Assembly: GCA_963663475.2 (NCBI GenBank) | Contig: CAXXJV010000001.1 | Coordinates: 128,001-192,000 of the forward strand | From: Candidatus Cloacimonadales bacterium | Lineage (GTDB): Bacteria > Cloacimonadota > Cloacimonadia > Cloacimonadales > JAFGVF01 | Direction: 5' to 3' | Length of the DNA stretch: 64,000 nt | Shown here: positions 24,657 through 32,465 of the stretch, in pieces | How the letters are laid out: each line of letters begins with the position of its first letter | Numbering within the stretch: position 1 is the stretch's first letter | The notes under the pieces: model-generated | Database searches by the model: none | Told to the model about the DNA's origin: nothing | Seen by the model: only the letters and a program-made list of their open reading frames with translations | Made by a program: the position numbers and the translations under genes

Positions 24657-25162
24657 TTCAAGATCAACAACTTTTAAAAGCAATTGGCCAAGTAATTACC
24701 AGGAACATCAAGTCTAGGATAAGACAAAATAAAATCACTCCTGCTACTCCCAATAAGCTTAAAAACAAGGCTACTCTAACTGATAGTGGTAACCTTCTAA
24801 GTTCGATAACTTATGTAGTCCGAGGTGATTCTGTTGTGGTTGGCACCAATGTTACTTATGCCAGAATACACCAGGAAGGAGGGACAATCACTCCTAAAAA
24901 GGCAAAATACTTAGCAATACCTCTAACACCTGCCGCTAAGGTTAAAAGGCCTCTTGAATGGGAGGATACATTCATTCGGAAAGGCATCATCTTCAGAAAC
25001 CTGGGAAACGATAAAGTAGAGGCTCTCTATAAGCTCCAGAAGTCAGTCAAAATACCTGCAAGACCTTATTTGTTTATAAGTCCTGAAGATGAAAATCAAA
25101 TCTCTAATATTATTAGCAAATACTACGATAATAAGATAAGGAGTAAGTTCAATGGCTCATAA
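24653..25162 (+). CDS. Phage virion morphogenesis protein (Mu gpG/P2 gpS family)
   Basis: LTDSGNLLSSI, VGTNVTYARIHQEGG and IPARPYL. Confidence 0.9.
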   Translation: MIQDQQLLKAIGQVITRNIKSRIRQNKITPATPNKLKNKATLTDSGNLLSSITYVVRGDSVVVGTNVTYARIHQEGGTITPKKAKYLAIPLTPAAKVKRPLEWEDTFIRKGIIFRNLGNDKVEALYKLQKSVKIPARPYLFISPEDENQISNIISKYYDNKIRSKFNGS

Positions 25163-25625
25163 ACGTATTGTAAAAGAACAAGCTGAAAGACTCTACATCA
25201 TGGAAGGCAAGCCAATAAACGAAATTGCTACTATTCTAAAAGTCTCTCAGCAGACAATCTATGCTTGGAAAAAGAAACATGAATGGGATAAGGCTATTAG
25301 AGCTTCAGGTACCATTGGTTTAACTATCGAAATGACTAAGTCTCTCTTTTCTGAAATGAATAAAGCCATGAAAGAAGGAAAGTTAACAGATCCTAAAACT
25401 GCTGATGCTTTAGCAAAGATATCAAAAATAGCAGAGAAACTATCTCCTGAAAAAATGATGCTTTCCAACATCTTTAATATGTTAGAAGACATTACTCATT
25501 GTATTCAGAATAAAATAAGAGATGAAGATTTTCTTATGCTCTGGGGCAAGTATCTTAGAGAAATTTCAGATGATTTAAGAAGAAAATATGCTTCTGGTAA
25601 CAACTTTAGGATGTCTGATGAATAA
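25152..25625 (+). CDS. Terminase small subunit-like HTH protein (DUF1804-like)
   Basis: AERLY...EIA..LKVSQQTIYAWKKKHEWD; directly upstream of the large terminase. Confidence 0.7.
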   Translation: MAHKRIVKEQAERLYIMEGKPINEIATILKVSQQTIYAWKKKHEWDKAIRASGTIGLTIEMTKSLFSEMNKAMKEGKLTDPKTADALAKISKIAEKLSPEKMMLSNIFNMLEDITHCIQNKIRDEDFLMLWGKYLREISDDLRRKYASGNNFRMSDE

Positions 25626-27116
25626 GCAAATTACAGTAAAAGAATTTGATAAGAAACTCGAGCTCTTAATAGCTAATATTAAGAAGTTCTCTACACCTCT
25701 GCCTAATGATAGAGTAGCTAAAGCCAAGAGAATTGATAAAGCTAAAAAAGACTTCTTCTTCTTTGCCGAAACTTACTTTCCTCACTATATCCGCTGTAAG
25801 TCAGGAACTCCTCATAAAATAGCTCATGAAGAAACAGAAGTACTGGGTCAAATTACAGCTATTGCTGGCTTTAGAGGTATGGGTAAGACAACTCAGTTAT
25901 CTATTATCAAACCTATCTGGAAAGCTCTTAAGGAAGAAATATTCTTTAATGTCAAGATTGCTAAATCTGATGACAAAGCAGCTGAAAGAACTGCAGCTAT
26001 TAGAGCTGAATTCCTCTTTAATGAAAGAATAAAGCAAGACTTCGGTCAGCTCTTAGCATCAACATCTTCAGAGTCTGATTTTACTATTAAAACTGGCTGT
26101 CGTTTCATAGCTCTTGGTTATAAATCAGGAGTTCGTGGTATTATCAATATGACTCACAGACCTGACTATATAGACATCGATGACTTAGAAGACCACCTAT
26201 CTTTTAATGAAAGAATTGCTAAGGAAAAACTTCAATTTGTTACTGAAGAAGCTTATGGTGCCCTGGAAGATGGACAAGGCTATATCATCTGGCTTGGTAA
26301 TCTTACTCACCAGAAATCAGCTTTAAATCTCTTTAAGAAATCACAGAAACAGGAGATCTCTCTGGTCGTAAGATGCTTATCTTCAAAGTTGATGATGGTC
26401 ACTTTAATCCAACATGGCCAGAAAAACATACCAAAGAACAACTGATCAAAATCTATCAGACTATCGGTCGTTTTGGTTATGAACGCCACTTTAGGATGAA
26501 TCCAGTAGTCGAAGGCCTTAAGTTCAAAGAAGCCTGGTTTAGATATTACTCACCTGAAGATATCGAAAACATCACCTTTGAGAAAATAGTTAACTACACA
26601 GACCCTTCTTTAGGTGAAAAATCTACTTCAGACTACAAAGCCTCCATGACTATTGGCTTCTATAAAAAACACTATTATCTACTTGAATGCTACTTAAGAA
26701 AAGCTTCTATTACAGAAATGCTTAAATACCTCTATTCAGTTCATAGTAGATACAATGCCCGTCTTTATATGGAGTCCAACTTCTGGCAAAAGGTTATCTG
26801 GGACTACATCCCTGATATTGCTCTTGTTATGGGTTATATGCTACCTCTTTCAGGAGTTGAAAACAAAGAGAAGAAAGAACTTAGAATTGAAAGACTTGAA
26901 CCTTACTTCGAATGGGGTTGGCTTCTCTTTCCTAAACAAAAAACAGCAGAAACACAACTACTGGAAGACCAATTACTCGGCTTCCCTGATTATCCTAACG
27001 ATGACGGACCTGATGCCTTAGCAGGAGGAGTAAATTGCCTTAGAATTAACTCTCAAGAAGAAAGCTATGATACAGTTGAAACAAGTCTGGCCACTCAATT
27101 TTCTGATGTCTGGTAA
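25618..27116 (+). pseudogene. Terminase large subunit, split by a -1 frameshift near 26338-26372
   Basis: ATPase half (FRGMGKT, DIDDLED) in one frame; nuclease half (DPS, DYKA, ESN, DDGPDALAG) in the -1 frame. Confidence 0.75.
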
Positions 27117-27256
27117 CACTACTGGGAGCGCCGACATCCCTGTCGGCATCTTAATTAACTGGGAACGTGGGCATCTTGCCCGCATTAATTCGTGTTAATT
27201 CGCTTAAATTCGCGTTAATTCGTGTAAAAGCTCTTAAAATATTAAAGGAGAAAAAA

Positions 27257-29935
27257 ATGAATATACTTGATTTATTTAAAAAAACATCAACAACCATCTT
27301 AACTCAAAATAAAATTGAGGAAGAAAAACCTCTTTGGTCAGCTAAAATCACACCTTCAGAAATGGATTTAGCTCTACATAATGCCCATAATGGAAGATTG
27401 AAACACCTTAATAACTTATATGATAGACTTTATAAGCTTGATGATAACCTGGCTGGGGATACTGATGTCAGAGTAGAAGCTCTTAAATCAGCTTCTTTCA
27501 CTTTCCCTGAAGGTCTCTCGAAGCAACAACAAGACTTCTTTAAAGCCTTTTTAGAGAACTTTTTTACAGTCCTCATTGACCAGGCTCTTGATTTAAAACT
27601 AACTGGTTCTCTCTTTCGTCAGATTACCTTTAAGCTGGAAAACAATCTTTATACCATAGACAAGTTCATAGAATACAAAAACCTCGATTTGAGGGCTGAA
27701 AAATCTGAATTGGTCTTGTATGTCGAAGATGAGAAGAAAAGCCTCTCTGATGATAAATTTGTGCGTCTATATCAAAATTATTCAGTCTATGAGTCTATAA
27801 TCAAATACTATGCTTTCTTTTCCTTTGCTCTCAACAACTGGGCTTCCTTTGTTGAAACCTATGGAAAACCTATCAGAATTGGTAAGTATAAACCAGGTTC
27901 AACCCCTGAAGAGAAGAACCTACTCAAGTCTATGGTAAAGAACCTGGGTACAGACTTAGGAGCTGTTATCTCTGAAAATACTCTAATTGAGTTCGCAGAC
28001 TTTAAAAATGCTTCAGCTAATGCTAATCTCTACGCAACTCTTTTAGATTTCTGTAAAAAATCAATCTCTAAAAGAATACTTGGCCAAACTCTCACAACTA
28101 ATACTGAAAAGACAGGATCCTATGCTCAAGCTAAGGTTCATAACATGGTCAGACAGGATATCCTCCAGGCTGACATCAGAGACTGCTCTAAGTATATCTC
28201 TTATATCTGCTCCAGGTTAAACAGATTGAACTTCGTTGACCAAGATATTAAAGTAACTCTTACTATCCCTGAACATGTTGATTTAAACACTAAGATAAAC
28301 ATCGATACTCAACTAAACAAAATCATCGAAATCGAACCTGATTATTGGTACACCACTTATGGCATCCCTGTACCAAAGTCTGGTGCAAAACTAAAGGAGG
28401 TTGCATCTCAGCTCTTCCCTTTTCAGAATAGGATTGGGGTTGGCTCCACTGGGATCGCTGGCATCCCTGTCGGCATAACTGGGAACACGGGCATCCCTGC
28501 CGCCATAACTGGGAACGCGGGCATCCCTGCCCGCACAGGCAGTTCAACTGATTGTATATCTTCAAAGTCCCCTTCAGGGGATTTAGGGGCTTCCCTCAAA
28601 GAACTCAAGAAAATCAAATCTCAAATTAAAGAAGCCAAATCTTTCAAAGATATAGAAAATATGTCTTATCCTAAAGACCTCTATTTAACCTATGCGAATG
28701 AGATGTATCAAACACTTCTTAAAGAATACTATAAGCTAAGAAAAGCTTCTCTAAAGAAGAAAGCTTCCTCTTCAATTCTCAACTCTCAATTCTCAATTCT
28801 CAATTCTGATGACTTCAACTTCGAAATAGACTGGACCCTGGAAGATACCAAAGCCCTCCATGCATTCAGAGCAGAAACCTTTATCGTAGCAGGAGTTACT
28901 TCTCAATCCATGCTTGACATGATTAAGTCTGAAGCTGAAAAAGCCTTTACTCAAGGTACTACCTTTCAAGAGTTCCAGGAAAATCTAAAACTAAAAGGCT
29001 TTGAACCTGATAATCCTTACCACCTAAGAACTAACTTCCAACAAGCTATTAAATCAGCTCGTGCATCTGCAGAATGGAAAGATATCCAGGACACTAAAGA
29101 AATCTTCCCTTATCTCCGTTATGTTACTATGCAAGATGATGCTGTGAGAGATGAACATAGAGCCTTAGATGGCATAGTCAGACATGTAGATGATCCTTTC
29201 TGGGATGAGTATTATCCTCCTAATGGCTGGGGTTGTCGTTGTGGTAAAGAACAACTAACTGAAGAAGAAGCAAACGGAGACCCTGGACTCAAGAGAGATG
29301 TTCCTCCTGATTCAAATGTTAAAGAAGAGTTTAAACGCAATGTAGGCAAAGACAATTCTCTCTTTGGGGATTGGTTAAGCTGTGAAGATGCTAAAAACAT
29401 CTCTATTTTATACCCAGAAATGTCTATCAGAAGCAAGCGTTTACACATCTACAACTCAGGTAAAAAGCATTGCCCTGATTTATATGCAAATACCTACAAG
29501 GATTTAAAGCTTAAGGATTGGAAAGATATGCCAGAGAATAAACTGCCAAAACTCTACGATACAGATGGTAAAACTAAAGATGAATTGCTCAAAGACTATG
29601 CAGATTATCTTGGAGACAGGAGGATTAAGTACAACGATAACACTCCAATAGAACTACTTGCTATTAAAGCTCAAAAATTCAAGAACTACGATTTGAAAGA
29701 CATTAAAGGTAGACTAAAGTATATGAATACCATCGATGATGTTTTAACAAAGCCTGATGAAGTATGGCAACAATCTGATAAAAAGAGAATACGATTCTTT
29801 AAGAAATACTCTAAAAATATCATTCTTCTTGTGGAAATCAAGGAAGGTTCTTATGAATACTTTAACATCATTGTAGCTTCCAATTCAAATAGTATAGATA
29901 AAAAACGTACTGGATTCTTTGGAATAAAGAAATAA
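27257..29935 (+). CDS. Portal (Mu gp29/DUF935) fused to MuF (gp30) and a C-terminal PBECR-like nuclease-fold domain
   Basis: WASFVETYGKP..IGKY and ISKRILGQTLTT..GSYAQAKVH (portal); HLRTN, VRDEH and PFW..YYPPNGWGCRC (MuF); LTKPDEVW...KKRTG tail; AAGGAG RBS. Confidence 0.85.
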   Translation: MNILDLFKKTSTTILTQNKIEEEKPLWSAKITPSEMDLALHNAHNGRLKHLNNLYDRLYKLDDNLAGDTDVRVEALKSASFTFPEGLSKQQQDFFKAFLENFFTVLIDQALDLKLTGSLFRQITFKLENNLYTIDKFIEYKNLDLRAEKSELVLYVEDEKKSLSDDKFVRLYQNYSVYESIIKYYAFFSFALNNWASFVETYGKPIRIGKYKPGSTPEEKNLLKSMVKNLGTDLGAVISENTLIEFADFKNASANANLYATLLDFCKKSISKRILGQTLTTNTEKTGSYAQAKVHNMVRQDILQADIRDCSKYISYICSRLNRLNFVDQDIKVTLTIPEHVDLNTKINIDTQLNKIIEIEPDYWYTTYGIPVPKSGAKLKEVASQLFPFQNRIGVGSTGIAGIPVGITGNTGIPAAITGNAGIPARTGSSTDCISSKSPSGDLGASLKELKKIKSQIKEAKSFKDIENMSYPKDLYLTYANEMYQTLLKEYYKLRKASLKKKASSSILNSQFSILNSDDFNFEIDWTLEDTKALHAFRAETFIVAGVTSQSMLDMIKSEAEKAFTQGTTFQEFQENLKLKGFEPDNPYHLRTNFQQAIKSARASAEWKDIQDTKEIFPYLRYVTMQDDAVRDEHRALDGIVRHVDDPFWDEYYPPNGWGCRCGKEQLTEEEANGDPGLKRDVPPDSNVKEEFKRNVGKDNSLFGDWLSCEDAKNISILYPEMSIRSKRLHIYNSGKKHCPDLYANTYKDLKLKDWKDMPENKLPKLYDTDGKTKDELLKDYADYLGDRRIKYNDNTPIELLAIKAQKFKNYDLKDIKGRLKYMNTIDDVLTKPDEVWQQSDKKRIRFFKKYSKNIILLVEIKEGSYEYFNIIVASNSNSIDKKRTGFFGIKK
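28448..28537 (+). repeat. Three tandem 30-bp ACTGGGA-REP units in-frame in the portal-MuF linker
   Basis: Encode TGIAGIPVGI/TGNTGIPAAI/TGNAGIPART; same family as the intergenic host copies. Confidence 0.85.
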
Positions 29936-29949
29936 ATAAGTTATAACGT

Positions 29950-29977
29950 AAAAAGGGCTATTCTATATAGCCCTTTT
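29950..29977. terminator. Bidirectional terminator
   Basis: AAAAGGGCTA-TTCTATA-TAGCCCTTTT. Confidence 0.8.
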
Positions 29978-30200
29978 GTTTGATATTAAGACGCTAACAC
30001 GCCACGAATCAACAAACGTCGCCTCAGGGTTAGCCCCATCAGTCAAGATGCTCGTGGTTTACTTATCAACCTCAGCGTCCACACAGCTTAAACAAGGATA
30101 AGCTCTGGCTGTGCTTCCAGTTTCATGGACCCGTAAAGTCTTAATCACTTCTAGGCTTTCCACACCAATCAAACGAGGATTAAGCTCTCTCGGTGCTTCT
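29950..30200 (-). ncRNA. Candidate phage structured ncRNA (~250 nt), family unassigned
   Basis: Own TTGCAA-N16-TATAAT promoter (30207-30234) and terminator; GC-richer than its flanks; repeated hairpins with covarying stems; no credible ORF. Confidence 0.7.
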
Positions 30201-30238
30201 ATTTATATTATACTCAAGTTCTTACTTTTTGCAAGTTA

Positions 30239-31537
30239 TCATTCATCAATTAAACCCAAAATCCACTCAATCCAAGAAATTACAGTACTTGCTCTTCGAT
30301 TATATGTATACTCTGATTCTACACTATTAATATTAGATATTTTCATAAATTCTACTATACTTTCTTTCTCTGGTCTAACCTGATTATCTAAGTAATCTAA
30401 TAGTGCTAATCTGAAAGGTTTATGAGATAATATTAGTTCTGTATATTTAAGATTTCTTTCTCTATTAGTTTTATTGAAAAGAGATTTACCCATTTCACTC
30501 AAGTAATATACGATATCTCCTTGTTCATTTTTTCCTTTCTCTATTAGCATTAAATATAAACAAGCATTAGTATAATAGCCAGTTTGTCTATTAGTAAAAT
30601 TATAGTTTTCAGTTATTTCATCATTGCTAATCTCATTTTTATCGTTCAGAATCTCACAAATGTTAATAACTCTTTCAAAACTATTAGCTTGTGGAAAAGG
30701 TACATTTGTAGATTCCTCTGTAACTCTTACAAAAGATAATATCTCTATAATATCATTTAGCCGTATTGGTGAATCTGTGAAAGTATAAGATTGTTTTCTC
30801 ACGAGTACTATTGAATTATATTTGTTTTTGTCAGTAAATCTGTATTCATGTAGAGTAAAAATACCATTTAAAAACGTCATATAAACTGGTCTTATAGTCT
30901 TATTGATTTTATTCTCCCATAAACGGTATGGATAATAAAGTTGCCTAATCAGAAAGTCCTCAGATATTGTGTTCTTAGCTTCTATTAGAATTAAAGAGTT
31001 TTGACTCTCAAATCCTCCATCTATCTCCATTTGAGATTTCTCTACAGAACACTCCAAAAGATTCAGATCATGTTTTTGGACACTAAAATTGAAACATCCT
31101 GAAGACATTCTACCACTTACTGTTAATTGGCTATCCTCATCAAAGAAATCATTAAAAATACCTGAAATTTGAGCAATATTTATTGCTGTAGATTCGCTTG
31201 TGATATTCCCTTGTTCAATTGATAGGATATGTTCTGGAAAAGGTACAGTCTTAACATCTGTTTTAATTTTTTCAAAGTCATGATATGCTTCAAAATTTGA
31301 AATGACATAATCACCTCTTGTTAAAGGGAGGATTGCAAGTTTATATTTTTTAAATAATTTTGGCAAAGTATTCTTGAAGTCAAACTTAGTCATAAGTCTT
31401 GCTTCTCGAAATTCTTTAATCTCCTTTGCGGTAATAATATATTTACCTTCATCAGTTATTTTTTTATCAATCTTATATTTATCAAACAATTTTCCCCAAG
31501 CCTCATCAAGCTTAGTTTCACTAGATTTTTTACTCAT
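30239..31537 (-). CDS. Putative type II restriction endonuclease (PD-(D/E)XK, C-terminal winged-helix-like domain)
   Basis: QMEIDGGFESQNSLILIEAK and RQLYYPYR; coupled to a Dam-like methylase. Confidence 0.7.
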   Translation of the reverse strand: MSKKSSETKLDEAWGKLFDKYKIDKKITDEGKYIITAKEIKEFREARLMTKFDFKNTLPKLFKKYKLAILPLTRGDYVISNFEAYHDFEKIKTDVKTVPFPEHILSIEQGNITSESTAINIAQISGIFNDFFDEDSQLTVSGRMSSGCFNFSVQKHDLNLLECSVEKSQMEIDGGFESQNSLILIEAKNTISEDFLIRQLYYPYRLWENKINKTIRPVYMTFLNGIFTLHEYRFTDKNKYNSIVLVRKQSYTFTDSPIRLNDIIEILSFVRVTEESTNVPFPQANSFERVINICEILNDKNEISNDEITENYNFTNRQTGYYTNACLYLMLIEKGKNEQGDIVYYLSEMGKSLFNKTNRERNLKYTELILSHKPFRLALLDYLDNQVRPEKESIVEFMKISNINSVESEYTYNRRASTVISWIEWILGLIDE

Positions 31538-32366
31538 AGTTCCTCACTAGGACTTCATCAACTTCTCCTCTAGATGATCCTACAGAGTTAATCGACCTTC
31601 TAGCCTGAACATTAAGTATTTGATAATCTTTGTATAATTCTCTTATATACTCTGTGTTTGAATTAGATAAAAGAAATTTAACTCCTCTTTGATTTAAATT
31701 ATCACATAATAATTTTAATCTCAATTGCTCATCTTTATTGAAGCCACCCTGAGTGTATCCAGTAAAACTTGAACTAGAAGAAACAGGATCATAAGGTGGA
31801 TCAAAATAAACAAATGCTCCCTTTCTAATTCCTTTTACTGATTCTTCAAAATCACCATTGAGAAAAGTTATATTATTATTCAACAGATATTTACTAACAG
31901 CTCTTAGTGTTACCTCATTAACGATGTTTGGATTCTTATAGAAACCAAAAGGGGCATTGAATTCTCCAGCTTGATTTACTCTAAACAAACCATTATAACA
32001 AGTTTTATTTAAATATATTATTCTTGAGGCTTTTTCTATATTAGAAAGTCTTTCATACGAACCTAAATCTCTATCCTTAGCACGAAGCTCATAAAAATAA
32101 TCTTTTGTATTTTCATGAGTTTTTAAATTATCAATTAGTTCTTCAACGTTTTCTTTAACAACTTGATAAACATTGATTAGTTCGGAGTTGTAGTCATTAA
32201 CTATGGCTTTTTTAGGTTGGATATCAAATAAAACAGCCCCACCCCCTAAAAATGGTTCATAATAAGTTGAGACATTTTGTGGTCTTAATTTATTTATCTG
32301 TGTTAAAAGTTGTCTTTTACCACCGACCCATTTTAAAATTGGCATTACTAATTTATTTTTTGGCAT
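31530..32366 (-). CDS. Dam/DpnII-like DNA adenine methyltransferase
   Basis: KWVGGKRQL, YYEPFLGGGAV, LNKTCYNGLFRVN, DPPY and SNS. Confidence 0.9.
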   Translation of the reverse strand: MPKNKLVMPILKWVGGKRQLLTQINKLRPQNVSTYYEPFLGGGAVLFDIQPKKAIVNDYNSELINVYQVVKENVEELIDNLKTHENTKDYFYELRAKDRDLGSYERLSNIEKASRIIYLNKTCYNGLFRVNQAGEFNAPFGFYKNPNIVNEVTLRAVSKYLLNNNITFLNGDFEESVKGIRKGAFVYFDPPYDPVSSSSSFTGYTQGGFNKDEQLRLKLLCDNLNQRGVKFLLSNSNTEYIRELYKDYQILNVQARRSINSVGSSRGEVDEVLVRNYE

Positions 32367-32465
32367 AATCATCTCCAACTTCTTGTCTTTTTTAAGACAT
32401 AATATATTTAAACAGCTTAGTGTCAATAAAATTTATATAAAATTAAGTAACACTTAAAAAGAATA

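Follow-up and report, generated by a model that had tools for sequence, protein, structure and literature searches.

Cloacimonadota and their prophages encode a previously undescribed family of small structured RNAs, which belongs to no Rfam family and whose genes lie, across very divergent phages, directly behind the gene of a phage head protein that ends in a PBECR2 domain, a predicted RNase. As shown by covariation among the 33 sequences that we collected, each unit of ~85 nt is made of two neighbouring hairpins whose apical loops are base-paired with each other. We regard it as firm that a new family of structured small RNAs exists and adopts this fold. Its occurrence directly behind a nuclease-like head-protein gene in many uncultured phages suggests that the two work as a pair, and we tentatively propose that the RNA is a ligand that neutralises the PBECR2 domain.

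The RNA gene and its relatives

The RNA gene was found in the window, i.e., the whole 64,000-nt stretch of DNA that we analysed, where it spans 30234-29946 on the minus strand from promoter to terminator and is non-coding. Both control elements proposed in the initial annotation could be located, and all the sequences it quoted were found on the minus strand at the positions it gave. The sigma-70-type promoter (30207..30234) combines a -35 element TTGCAA (30234-30229) and a -10 element TATAAT (30212-30207) across a 16-nt spacer, scores 10/12 and predicts an RNA 5' end at ~30202-30199. Taken by itself, the promoter scan does not exceed chance, the region being AT-rich (11 sites versus 9.1 expected). 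The intrinsic terminator (29946..29977) is an 11-bp hairpin (29951-29977) with a T run on both strands and is shared with the convergent head-protein gene, whose stop codon stands 16 nt ahead of the terminator stem. Only three ORFs touch the RNA region (37, 41 and 90 aa), with TTG or GTG starts, which agrees with the earlier view that no credible ORF is present. The 256-nt stretch folds at -79 kcal/mol compared to -64.4 ± 4 kcal/mol for shuffled sequences (z = -3.64; 0/200 shuffles), while single units fold only modestly better than their shuffles (z of -1.3 to -2.3, with one at +1.0).

A second related RNA locus is present in the window's own genome, in another prophage. More copies were obtained by BLAST against 61 related genomes and by an exact-word scan of genome and viral collections, and their hosts are Cloacimonadota according to the sequence records. 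Nine of 16 exact 17-mers in the genome collection were discarded as chance matches, as they fell into unrelated taxa and the surrounding hairpin was absent. When 151 genomes of the phylum were searched with a covariance model built from 12 units (R1), 6 proved to contain the RNA, with 1-8 matches per genome. This model misses distant members, and those of f4 were reached only through the protein. A MAFFT alignment of 19 diverse members (A5) misaligned the 3' half, which is why no second covariance model was built; distant members were segmented by eye. A motif descriptor of our own was rejected as too unspecific, since it gave 1-8 matches at nearly every locus. A promoter-like site of at least 9/12 lies upstream in 25 of the 33 family copies, compared to 16% of shuffles, and in most of these 25 its -10 element ends 10-12 nt before hairpin 1.

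When the whole 64 kb were scanned against Rfam (release 15), as the initial annotation had advised, no match reached the gathering score. In E-value mode, 11 chance-level matches were obtained, all at E ≥ 0.29 and mostly on the terminator. With the exception of SNORD36 (19 of 30 bits), these scored less than half of their gathering scores, and the best local match, sited on the terminator, had 23 bits where 47 are required. A search for tRNA and tmRNA genes found none. Among 50,697 records of cultured phages, there was neither a DNA match to the RNA nor a protein match to the C-terminal domain of its partner protein. The accessible texts on PBECR domains, MuF toxins and phage RNA motifs, supplementary tables aside, contain no mention that we could find of an RNA beside PBECR2, and a literature search for small RNAs in Cloacimonadota gave nothing relevant.

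A metatranscriptome run (X1) yielded a 239-nt contig that covers window positions 29980-30202 at 97% identity. Six differences separate it from the window; three of them fall into helices, and all three keep the pair. Within the contig, 29980 is joined head-to-tail to 30202 across a single extra letter, an arrangement that resembles the tandem units of the second prophage at the DNA level. Contigs show neither starts, ends, strand nor level; of the 1401 bases compared, coverage is limited to 29980-30202, and the uncovered flanks carry no meaning. We take the contig as a close relative present in an RNA library and not as proof of transcription; a transcript is possible.

Fold and covariation of the unit

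The 5' half of a unit consists of RAA, an outer stem of 4-7 bp, X plus GA, a G-rich inner stem of 2-4 bp and an apical loop of 4-8 nt. The 3' half continues with the inner stem, 3-5 nt followed by GA and Y, the outer stem, GG(A/G), a linker and hairpin 2, often with a terminator. The apical loops of the two hairpins are reverse complements of each other, and across 17 sequence versions all 100 cells of the loop-loop helix hold standard pairs. The loop pairs are CUUAAUC/GAUUAAG and CUUAUC/GAUAAG in units 1 and 2 of the window, respectively, and elsewhere CUUAAAC/GUUUAAG, CUUAGCC/GGCUAAG, CGUGCAA/UUGCACG, CUUGCU/AGCAAG, AUUGCC/GGCAAU, AUUGUC/GACAAU, CCUGCC/GGCAGG and others. One path of covariation leads from AUUGCC/GGCAAU through AUUGUC/GGCAAU, with a G·U pair, to AUUGUC/GACAAU. 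Cognate loops pair over their full length in 12 of 14 classes, compared to 38 of 182 non-cognate combinations. When only Watson-Crick pairs are counted, shuffles are beaten at p ≤ 0.05 by 9 of 12 representatives, whose lineages are not independent; a single loop-loop match is weak once G·U pairs count as well and the partner may lie anywhere downstream (p of 0.02-0.8). The initial annotation had missed the second hairpin with its complementary loop and had described the loops as conserved. They are conserved, yet they are not free: the region contains a short inner helix, a kink-turn-like loop and an apical loop of 4-7 nt that pairs with the second hairpin.

Hand segmentation of the 33 sequences yields 397 cells across four helices, of which 384 hold standard pairs (44 of them G·U). 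On the opposite strand, these helices score only 343 of 397, and through the G·U pairs the RNA strand is identified as minus. Among close relatives (18 distinct sequences in a model-fitted alignment), 91.3% of the cells are paired compared to 80.0% in shuffles (0/500), with slid controls at 30-42%, and 12 pairs are changed on both sides versus 6.1 expected. The compensatory stem changes described initially are thereby borne out across homologues.

In place of the three repeats of one hairpin that had been described, the 250-nt RNA of the window is a fusion of two family units. Unit 1 has lost its terminator and runs into unit 2, which has no promoter (6/12) and carries a 3' extension seen also in L002 and L048. 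As defined by covariation and a base-by-base check of the segmentation, hairpin 1 of unit 1 (30162..30196, minus strand, as for all features of the RNA) has the outer stem GCACCGA/UUGGUGU (30196-30190 / 30168-30162), an inner stem (30187-30185 / 30177-30175) and the apical loop CUUAAUC (30184-30178). Its kink-turn-like internal loop is formed by a 5' GA (30189-30188) and by a 3' bulge plus GA (30174-30169). Next come the conserved GGA linker (30159..30161) and hairpin 2 (30135..30151), with a stem at 30151-30147 / 30139-30135 and the loop GAUUAAG (30146-30140) complementary to the hairpin-1 loop. In unit 2, hairpin 1 (30081..30114) has the stem GCACAGC/GCUGUGU (30114-30108 / 30087-30081) and the loop CUUAUC (30102-30097), and its kink-turn signature is degenerate (CA / AA), both Gs being absent. 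Hairpin 2 of this unit (30056..30071; stem GGUU/AACC) contains in its loop GAUAAG (30067-30062), which pairs with the hairpin-1 loop of unit 2; relative to unit 1, one base pair is gone, on both sides.

The 3' extension (29985..30079) defines a long form, found only in the window, L002 and L048; with three sequences the covariation is too thin, and the fold is unsettled. The long-range complementary sequences pointed out initially are present, GACGCUGA/UUAGCGUC as a stem of 30079-30072 with 29997-29990, and AUUAAGAC/GUCUUAAU at 30145-30138 and 29992-29985. The extension further contains a stem CCACGA/UCGUGG (30057-30052 with 30007-30002) and a GGG-CUAA-CCC mini-hairpin (30037-30027). The kink-turn that had been placed in this third part is not kept in L002 or L048; the signature is conserved in hairpin 1 instead. 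There, the GA of the 5' strand, immediately ahead of the inner stem, is found in 27 of 33 copies, and that of the 3' strand, preceded by a bulge of 3-5 nt (4 nt for the window's clade), in 31 of 33. The internal loop of hairpin 1 hence retains the sequence signature of a kink-turn, with a three-dimensional kink and L7Ae-type binding as candidate features. Behind the outer stem, 32 of 33 copies have GG(A/G), L113 as segmented here being the exception; among the 29 copies tabulated, 28 have it immediately next to the stem, and in L077 a single A intervenes. In "type B" units, the middle of the outer stem consists of three purine-purine oppositions. Whatever its function, a compact natural RNA with a covariation-backed kink-turn and kissing-loop fold is a good target for structure determination.

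A conserved kink-turn signature would fit a sponge or decoy for a host RNA-binding protein, e.g. a kink-turn binder of the L7Ae family. The RNA occurs as multi-unit arrays, and the host encodes one L7Ae-family protein (33 bits against a cut-off of 22; C2:194452-194700, L128) on its 403-kb second replicon. We nevertheless consider a sponge improbable: kink-turns of riboswitches fold without protein, each unit has one kink-turn motif only, and the constant PBECR2 neighbour would be left unexplained.

In lysine and SAM-I riboswitch aptamers, a kink-turn closes a loop-loop or pseudoknot contact, and our RNA is similar to them in that the loop of a (putatively) kinked hairpin reaches a neighbouring element. 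It differs from riboswitches in that the contact is made by the loop of hairpin 2 and not by its stem, and in lacking an Rfam match even in E-value mode. Moreover, the prophage RNA has its own terminator, no switchable expression platform and no downstream gene on the same strand, the next gene being convergent, although two orphan copies do precede an ORF of 88-93 aa. The resemblance to aptamers counts for an independent trans-acting riboregulator of phage or host, which would act by base-pairing or ligand sensing and would merely sit at the boundary of the early operon and the packaging genes. Its own promoter and terminator, the 1-8 matches per genome, and the orphan and tandem copies in ordinary chromosomal intergenic regions point in the same direction. 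We take such a riboregulator seriously while judging it unlikely, because the structure accounts for nearly every conserved nucleotide and leaves little room for a seed, because the genome has no complement of at least 12 nt apart from the RNA genes themselves, and because one neighbour is constant over deep divergence whereas the other side varies. A search of the whole genome for 10-13 nt complements of the conserved loop was at chance level after subtraction of the matches of the three RNA genes themselves, so the antisense regulator considered initially found no target; one candidate complementary to a ribosome-binding site lies at C1:1502087.

Position behind the portal-MuF-PBECR2 gene

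The convergent partner gene (27167..29935, plus strand) encodes a 922-aa fusion of Mu-type portal, MuF and PBECR2 (Pfam Portal_Mu, Phage_Mu_F and PBECR2), with the PBECR2 domain at residues 832-917 (~29660-29917; Pfam E 2.7e-11). A structure model of the C-terminal part of the protein (pLDDT 75) gave nothing at E ≤ 0.001 in a Foldseek search against the PDB. In a wide fold search (VIA) with the last ~100 residues, the nearest folds were those of colicin D (Z 4.7, rmsd 3.2, 81 aligned), CdiA toxins, RelE and BrnT RNases, all of them weak matches (Z 3.0-4.7). The BECR fold comprises an N-terminal helix and a sheet of 4-5 strands, with a catalytic His (or Arg) and Ser/Thr. Among the PBECR2 domains here, the invariant residues are R, E, W, K, F, R and G; there is no conserved His, and one invariant Arg lies in the helix. 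The BECR fold and the RNase activity of the PBECR2 domain are thus predictions. To our knowledge, the inhibitors of known BECR toxins are all proteins. As far as the accessible part of PMC5512222 goes, PBECR domains are found on head proteins of very many phages with no target, partner or inhibitor known; where fused to MuF and portal, they are predicted to be RNases which the phage packages and injects.

Further upstream (25152-27116, plus strand), two overlapping ORFs (25588-26445 and 26373-27116) encode a split large terminase: they match a single PHROG terminase profile at positions 247-464 and 484-713, respectively, and are preceded by a 157-aa TerS/HTH-like ORF. The split could be a frameshift, either programmed or a defect.

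Starting from the RNA, the portal-MuF protein is encoded convergently and directly behind it in 9 of 16 loci; two further loci end at the RNA, with the protein beyond view. Starting from the protein, with its last 222 residues as the query, the C-terminal domain was found in 14 of 61 related genomes, and the RNA lies behind it in the window's own genome G000 (2 loci), G002 (2), G005, G006 (4), G033, G021, G022 and G056. A Pfam PBECR2 search of 151 genomes, 16 of them positive, added the RNA-bearing genomes G134, G111, G144 and G076. An alignment-based scan of viral and metagenome contigs for the C-terminal domain returned 6 and 24 loci, respectively. At all 12 strong loci that were inspected (E ≤ 1e-21), the RNA is convergent just behind the stop codon, at a protein identity of ~32-50%. 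In G017, two RNAs surround a 72-aa remnant of the C-terminal domain. Adjacency of RNA and PBECR2 is hence shown, at the level of gene order, to be kept across very divergent phages; it can stem from a conserved order of modules in related phages.

At the weak protein matches L078-L080 and L094-L104 (without the duplicate L095), an unfiltered R1 search found no RNA, and L094, L096 and L097 were also viewed by eye. No recognisable member of the RNA family accompanies the MuF-PBECR2 genes of G009, G012, G013 and G008. Another promoter-hairpin-terminator unit takes the RNA's place in the first three, two of these units being capped by tetraloops, and G008 has a terminator only. In the units behind the PBECR2 genes of G009 and G012 (L061/L107 and L109), which run from promoter to terminator, the inner hairpin is closed not by a kissing loop but by a tetraloop (AUCG, GAAA). 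Such units may be variants in which the loop-loop contact has been replaced. RNAs without a nearby PBECR2 gene occur at L020, L025, L032 and L048, and the C-terminal domain of the partner protein has no match in G038 or G052. Such RNAs fit orphan immunity and an independent small RNA equally well.

The convergent arrangement itself might point to a cis-acting element, either an insulator or terminator of the two operons or an antisense RNA to the head-protein mRNA via the shared terminator. With one bidirectional terminator between convergent genes, the 3' ends would overlap by ~30-40 nt, and such 3' overlaps are used by type I toxin-antitoxin pairs in prophages. It is very improbable that this explains the RNA, as the part that is conserved and covaries has no complementarity to the mRNA, a simple terminator would suffice, as in G008, and the orphan copies have no convergent gene.

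On the RNA's other side, the neighbouring genes fall into 14 unrelated clusters among 19 loci, and no conserved protein ORF is found at the position that immunity genes occupy behind BECR toxins. Co-occurrence with one or the other of the flanking nucleases had been suggested as a check, and it held for portal-MuF-PBECR2; the restriction enzyme, as part of a restriction-modification pair, is confined to the window among 127 loci. In the window (30239-32426, minus strand), this pair consists of a DUF6996/DUF6997/DUF7226 protein and a D12-class (Dam-type) adenine methylase, and it looks like a restriction-modification moron between the early genes and the RNA gene. In L075, L077, L083, L087, L089 and L115, the gene upstream of the RNA encodes a small protein whose C-terminus is similar among them, with I-W/Y-Y-G or nearly so at its end, and which could be a late-gene regulator in these distant phages. 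The corresponding upstream position of L002 holds a protein with ORF6N and sigma-70 region 4.

Among the orphan RNAs, those of L020, L025 and L032 lie between housekeeping genes, and that of L048 beside a TetR gene. At L025:5355-5621 and L020:6416-6697, which belong to another family, the RNA is followed by a protein of 88-93 aa without a Pfam match, the two having similar C-terminal ends; in L025, this ORF is flanked by two RNA genes in inverted orientation. Four identical prophage copies in one genome (L006:438-1500) carry a truncated unit of hairpin 1 only and, further on, a complete unit; between the two lies a cassette of two genes that brings its own promoter, as if it had been inserted into the RNA gene.

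Possible roles at the immunity-gene position

The constant neighbour leaves two ways in which the RNA may serve the PBECR2 protein, by inhibiting it or by assisting it. In the latter case, the RNA would be a non-inhibitory binder of MuF-PBECR2, i.e., a cofactor, an assembly aid, capsid cargo that is injected, or an RNA akin to the phi29 pRNA with loops joining different molecules. The pRNA of phi29 is phage-encoded, tied to the portal, and serves packaging without a small terminase; covarying complementary loops, of which it has two, are its hallmark. Our RNA likewise has two covarying complementary loops and stands beside the gene of a portal fusion. The linkage evidence speaks equally for a non-inhibitory partner, and, in the accessible part of PMC5512222, the MuF C-terminal domain of phage Mu, an inactive PBECR version, is predicted to bind RNA. 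The likeness to pRNA ends with the sequence and the fold, which are different, and with the chromosomal orphans. Furthermore, the prophage has ordinary small- and large-terminase genes (TerS-like and TerL), for which reason we lowered the packaging reading. The two units of the window have different loop pairs, each matching itself, which fits pairing within a unit, and a kink-turn beside a linker of 4-10 nt would fit an intramolecular contact too; the loop-loop pairing is probably intramolecular. As orphan copies also exist without any phage genes, we find a non-inhibitory partner rather unlikely.

Inhibition is the role that we rank first, because the RNA occupies the position of an immunity gene, because it forms arrays of differing units, and because orphan copies exist. 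Among the roles initially put forward, i.e., RNA antitoxin or decoy, protein sponge and packaging RNA, an antitoxin or decoy likewise comes out highest. The proposal of an RNA "immunity" that neutralises PBECR2, drawn from gene order and comparative sequence analysis, is our leading explanation and remains a tentative one. The kink would bring the loops of the two hairpins together and so create a compact, rigid RNA of specific shape, which the PBECR2 domain of the head protein would recognise as its ligand. As a tight-binding pseudo-substrate or inhibitor, the RNA would then neutralise the domain. Constitutive synthesis by the prophage would protect both the lysogen and the producing cell against the nuclease that related phages bring in their virions and inject. 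Arrays of differing units and chromosomal orphans would then parallel, at the RNA level, the immunity-gene arrays and orphans known from polymorphic toxins.

Several known systems offer parallels to such an RNA. In type III toxin-antitoxin systems (ToxI/ToxN, CptIN, TenpIN), a pseudoknotted, protein-binding RNA is encoded beside an endoribonuclease gene in a setting of phage conflict. Their RNA is a tandem array of 34-45 nt repeats located upstream of a ToxN/AbiQ-type toxin in the same operon. The present case is similar in that a structured RNA lies beside a predicted RNase gene, with inhibition as the proposed mechanism. In contrast to type III, the units are ~85 nt long, mostly have promoters of their own, are convergent with the protein gene and form no short head-to-tail repeats, and the protein is not of the ToxN/AbiQ family: its predicted BECR-fold domain ends a virion protein. 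The pairs of BECR toxins with their immunity proteins (colicin D-ImmD, CdiA-CdiI, RelE-RelB and BrnT-BrnA) share with our system an element that adjoins the C-terminal toxin module, as well as arrays and orphans. Unlike these protein partners, the element here is an RNA, its gene is convergent and not co-directional, and its immunity role is a proposal. By analogy, the RNA would work most like a type III antitoxin or one half of a toxin-immunity pair, while it lacks the defining features of type III. As in the MuF polymorphic toxins described in the accessible part of PMC5576092, the putative toxin module is carried on a MuF head protein of temperate phages, and the same source proposes that prophage-encoded immunity protects lysogens from MuF toxins.

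A wider reading, which is bolder and which we regard as speculative, makes these RNAs the first RNA-based immunity factors against a polymorphic RNase toxin delivered by virions. The kink-turn/kissing-loop fold would plug the PBECR2 domain that MuF proteins bring in at infection, and the prophage RNA would protect lysogens against superinfecting relatives. Arrays would widen this protection, and chromosomal orphans would be captured "RNA antidotes" that serve in anti-phage defence. The RNA, placed exactly where an immunity gene would be expected, is the first concrete candidate partner for PBECR domains. If it inhibits the domain, RNA antitoxins would extend beyond type III to polymorphic and injected toxins, and superinfection immunity would gain a new layer.

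A mimic of CRISPR repeats, i.e., an RNA anti-CRISPR, was also considered and rejected, as comparison by eye showed no resemblance of the RNA to the 37-nt repeat of the genome's single array. This array (C1:1257810-1264175) has 88 repeats and lies outside the window. Scattered over both replicons of the same genome are, in addition, ~15 arrays in which a tandem repeat of 55-57 nt includes a G+C-rich palindrome.
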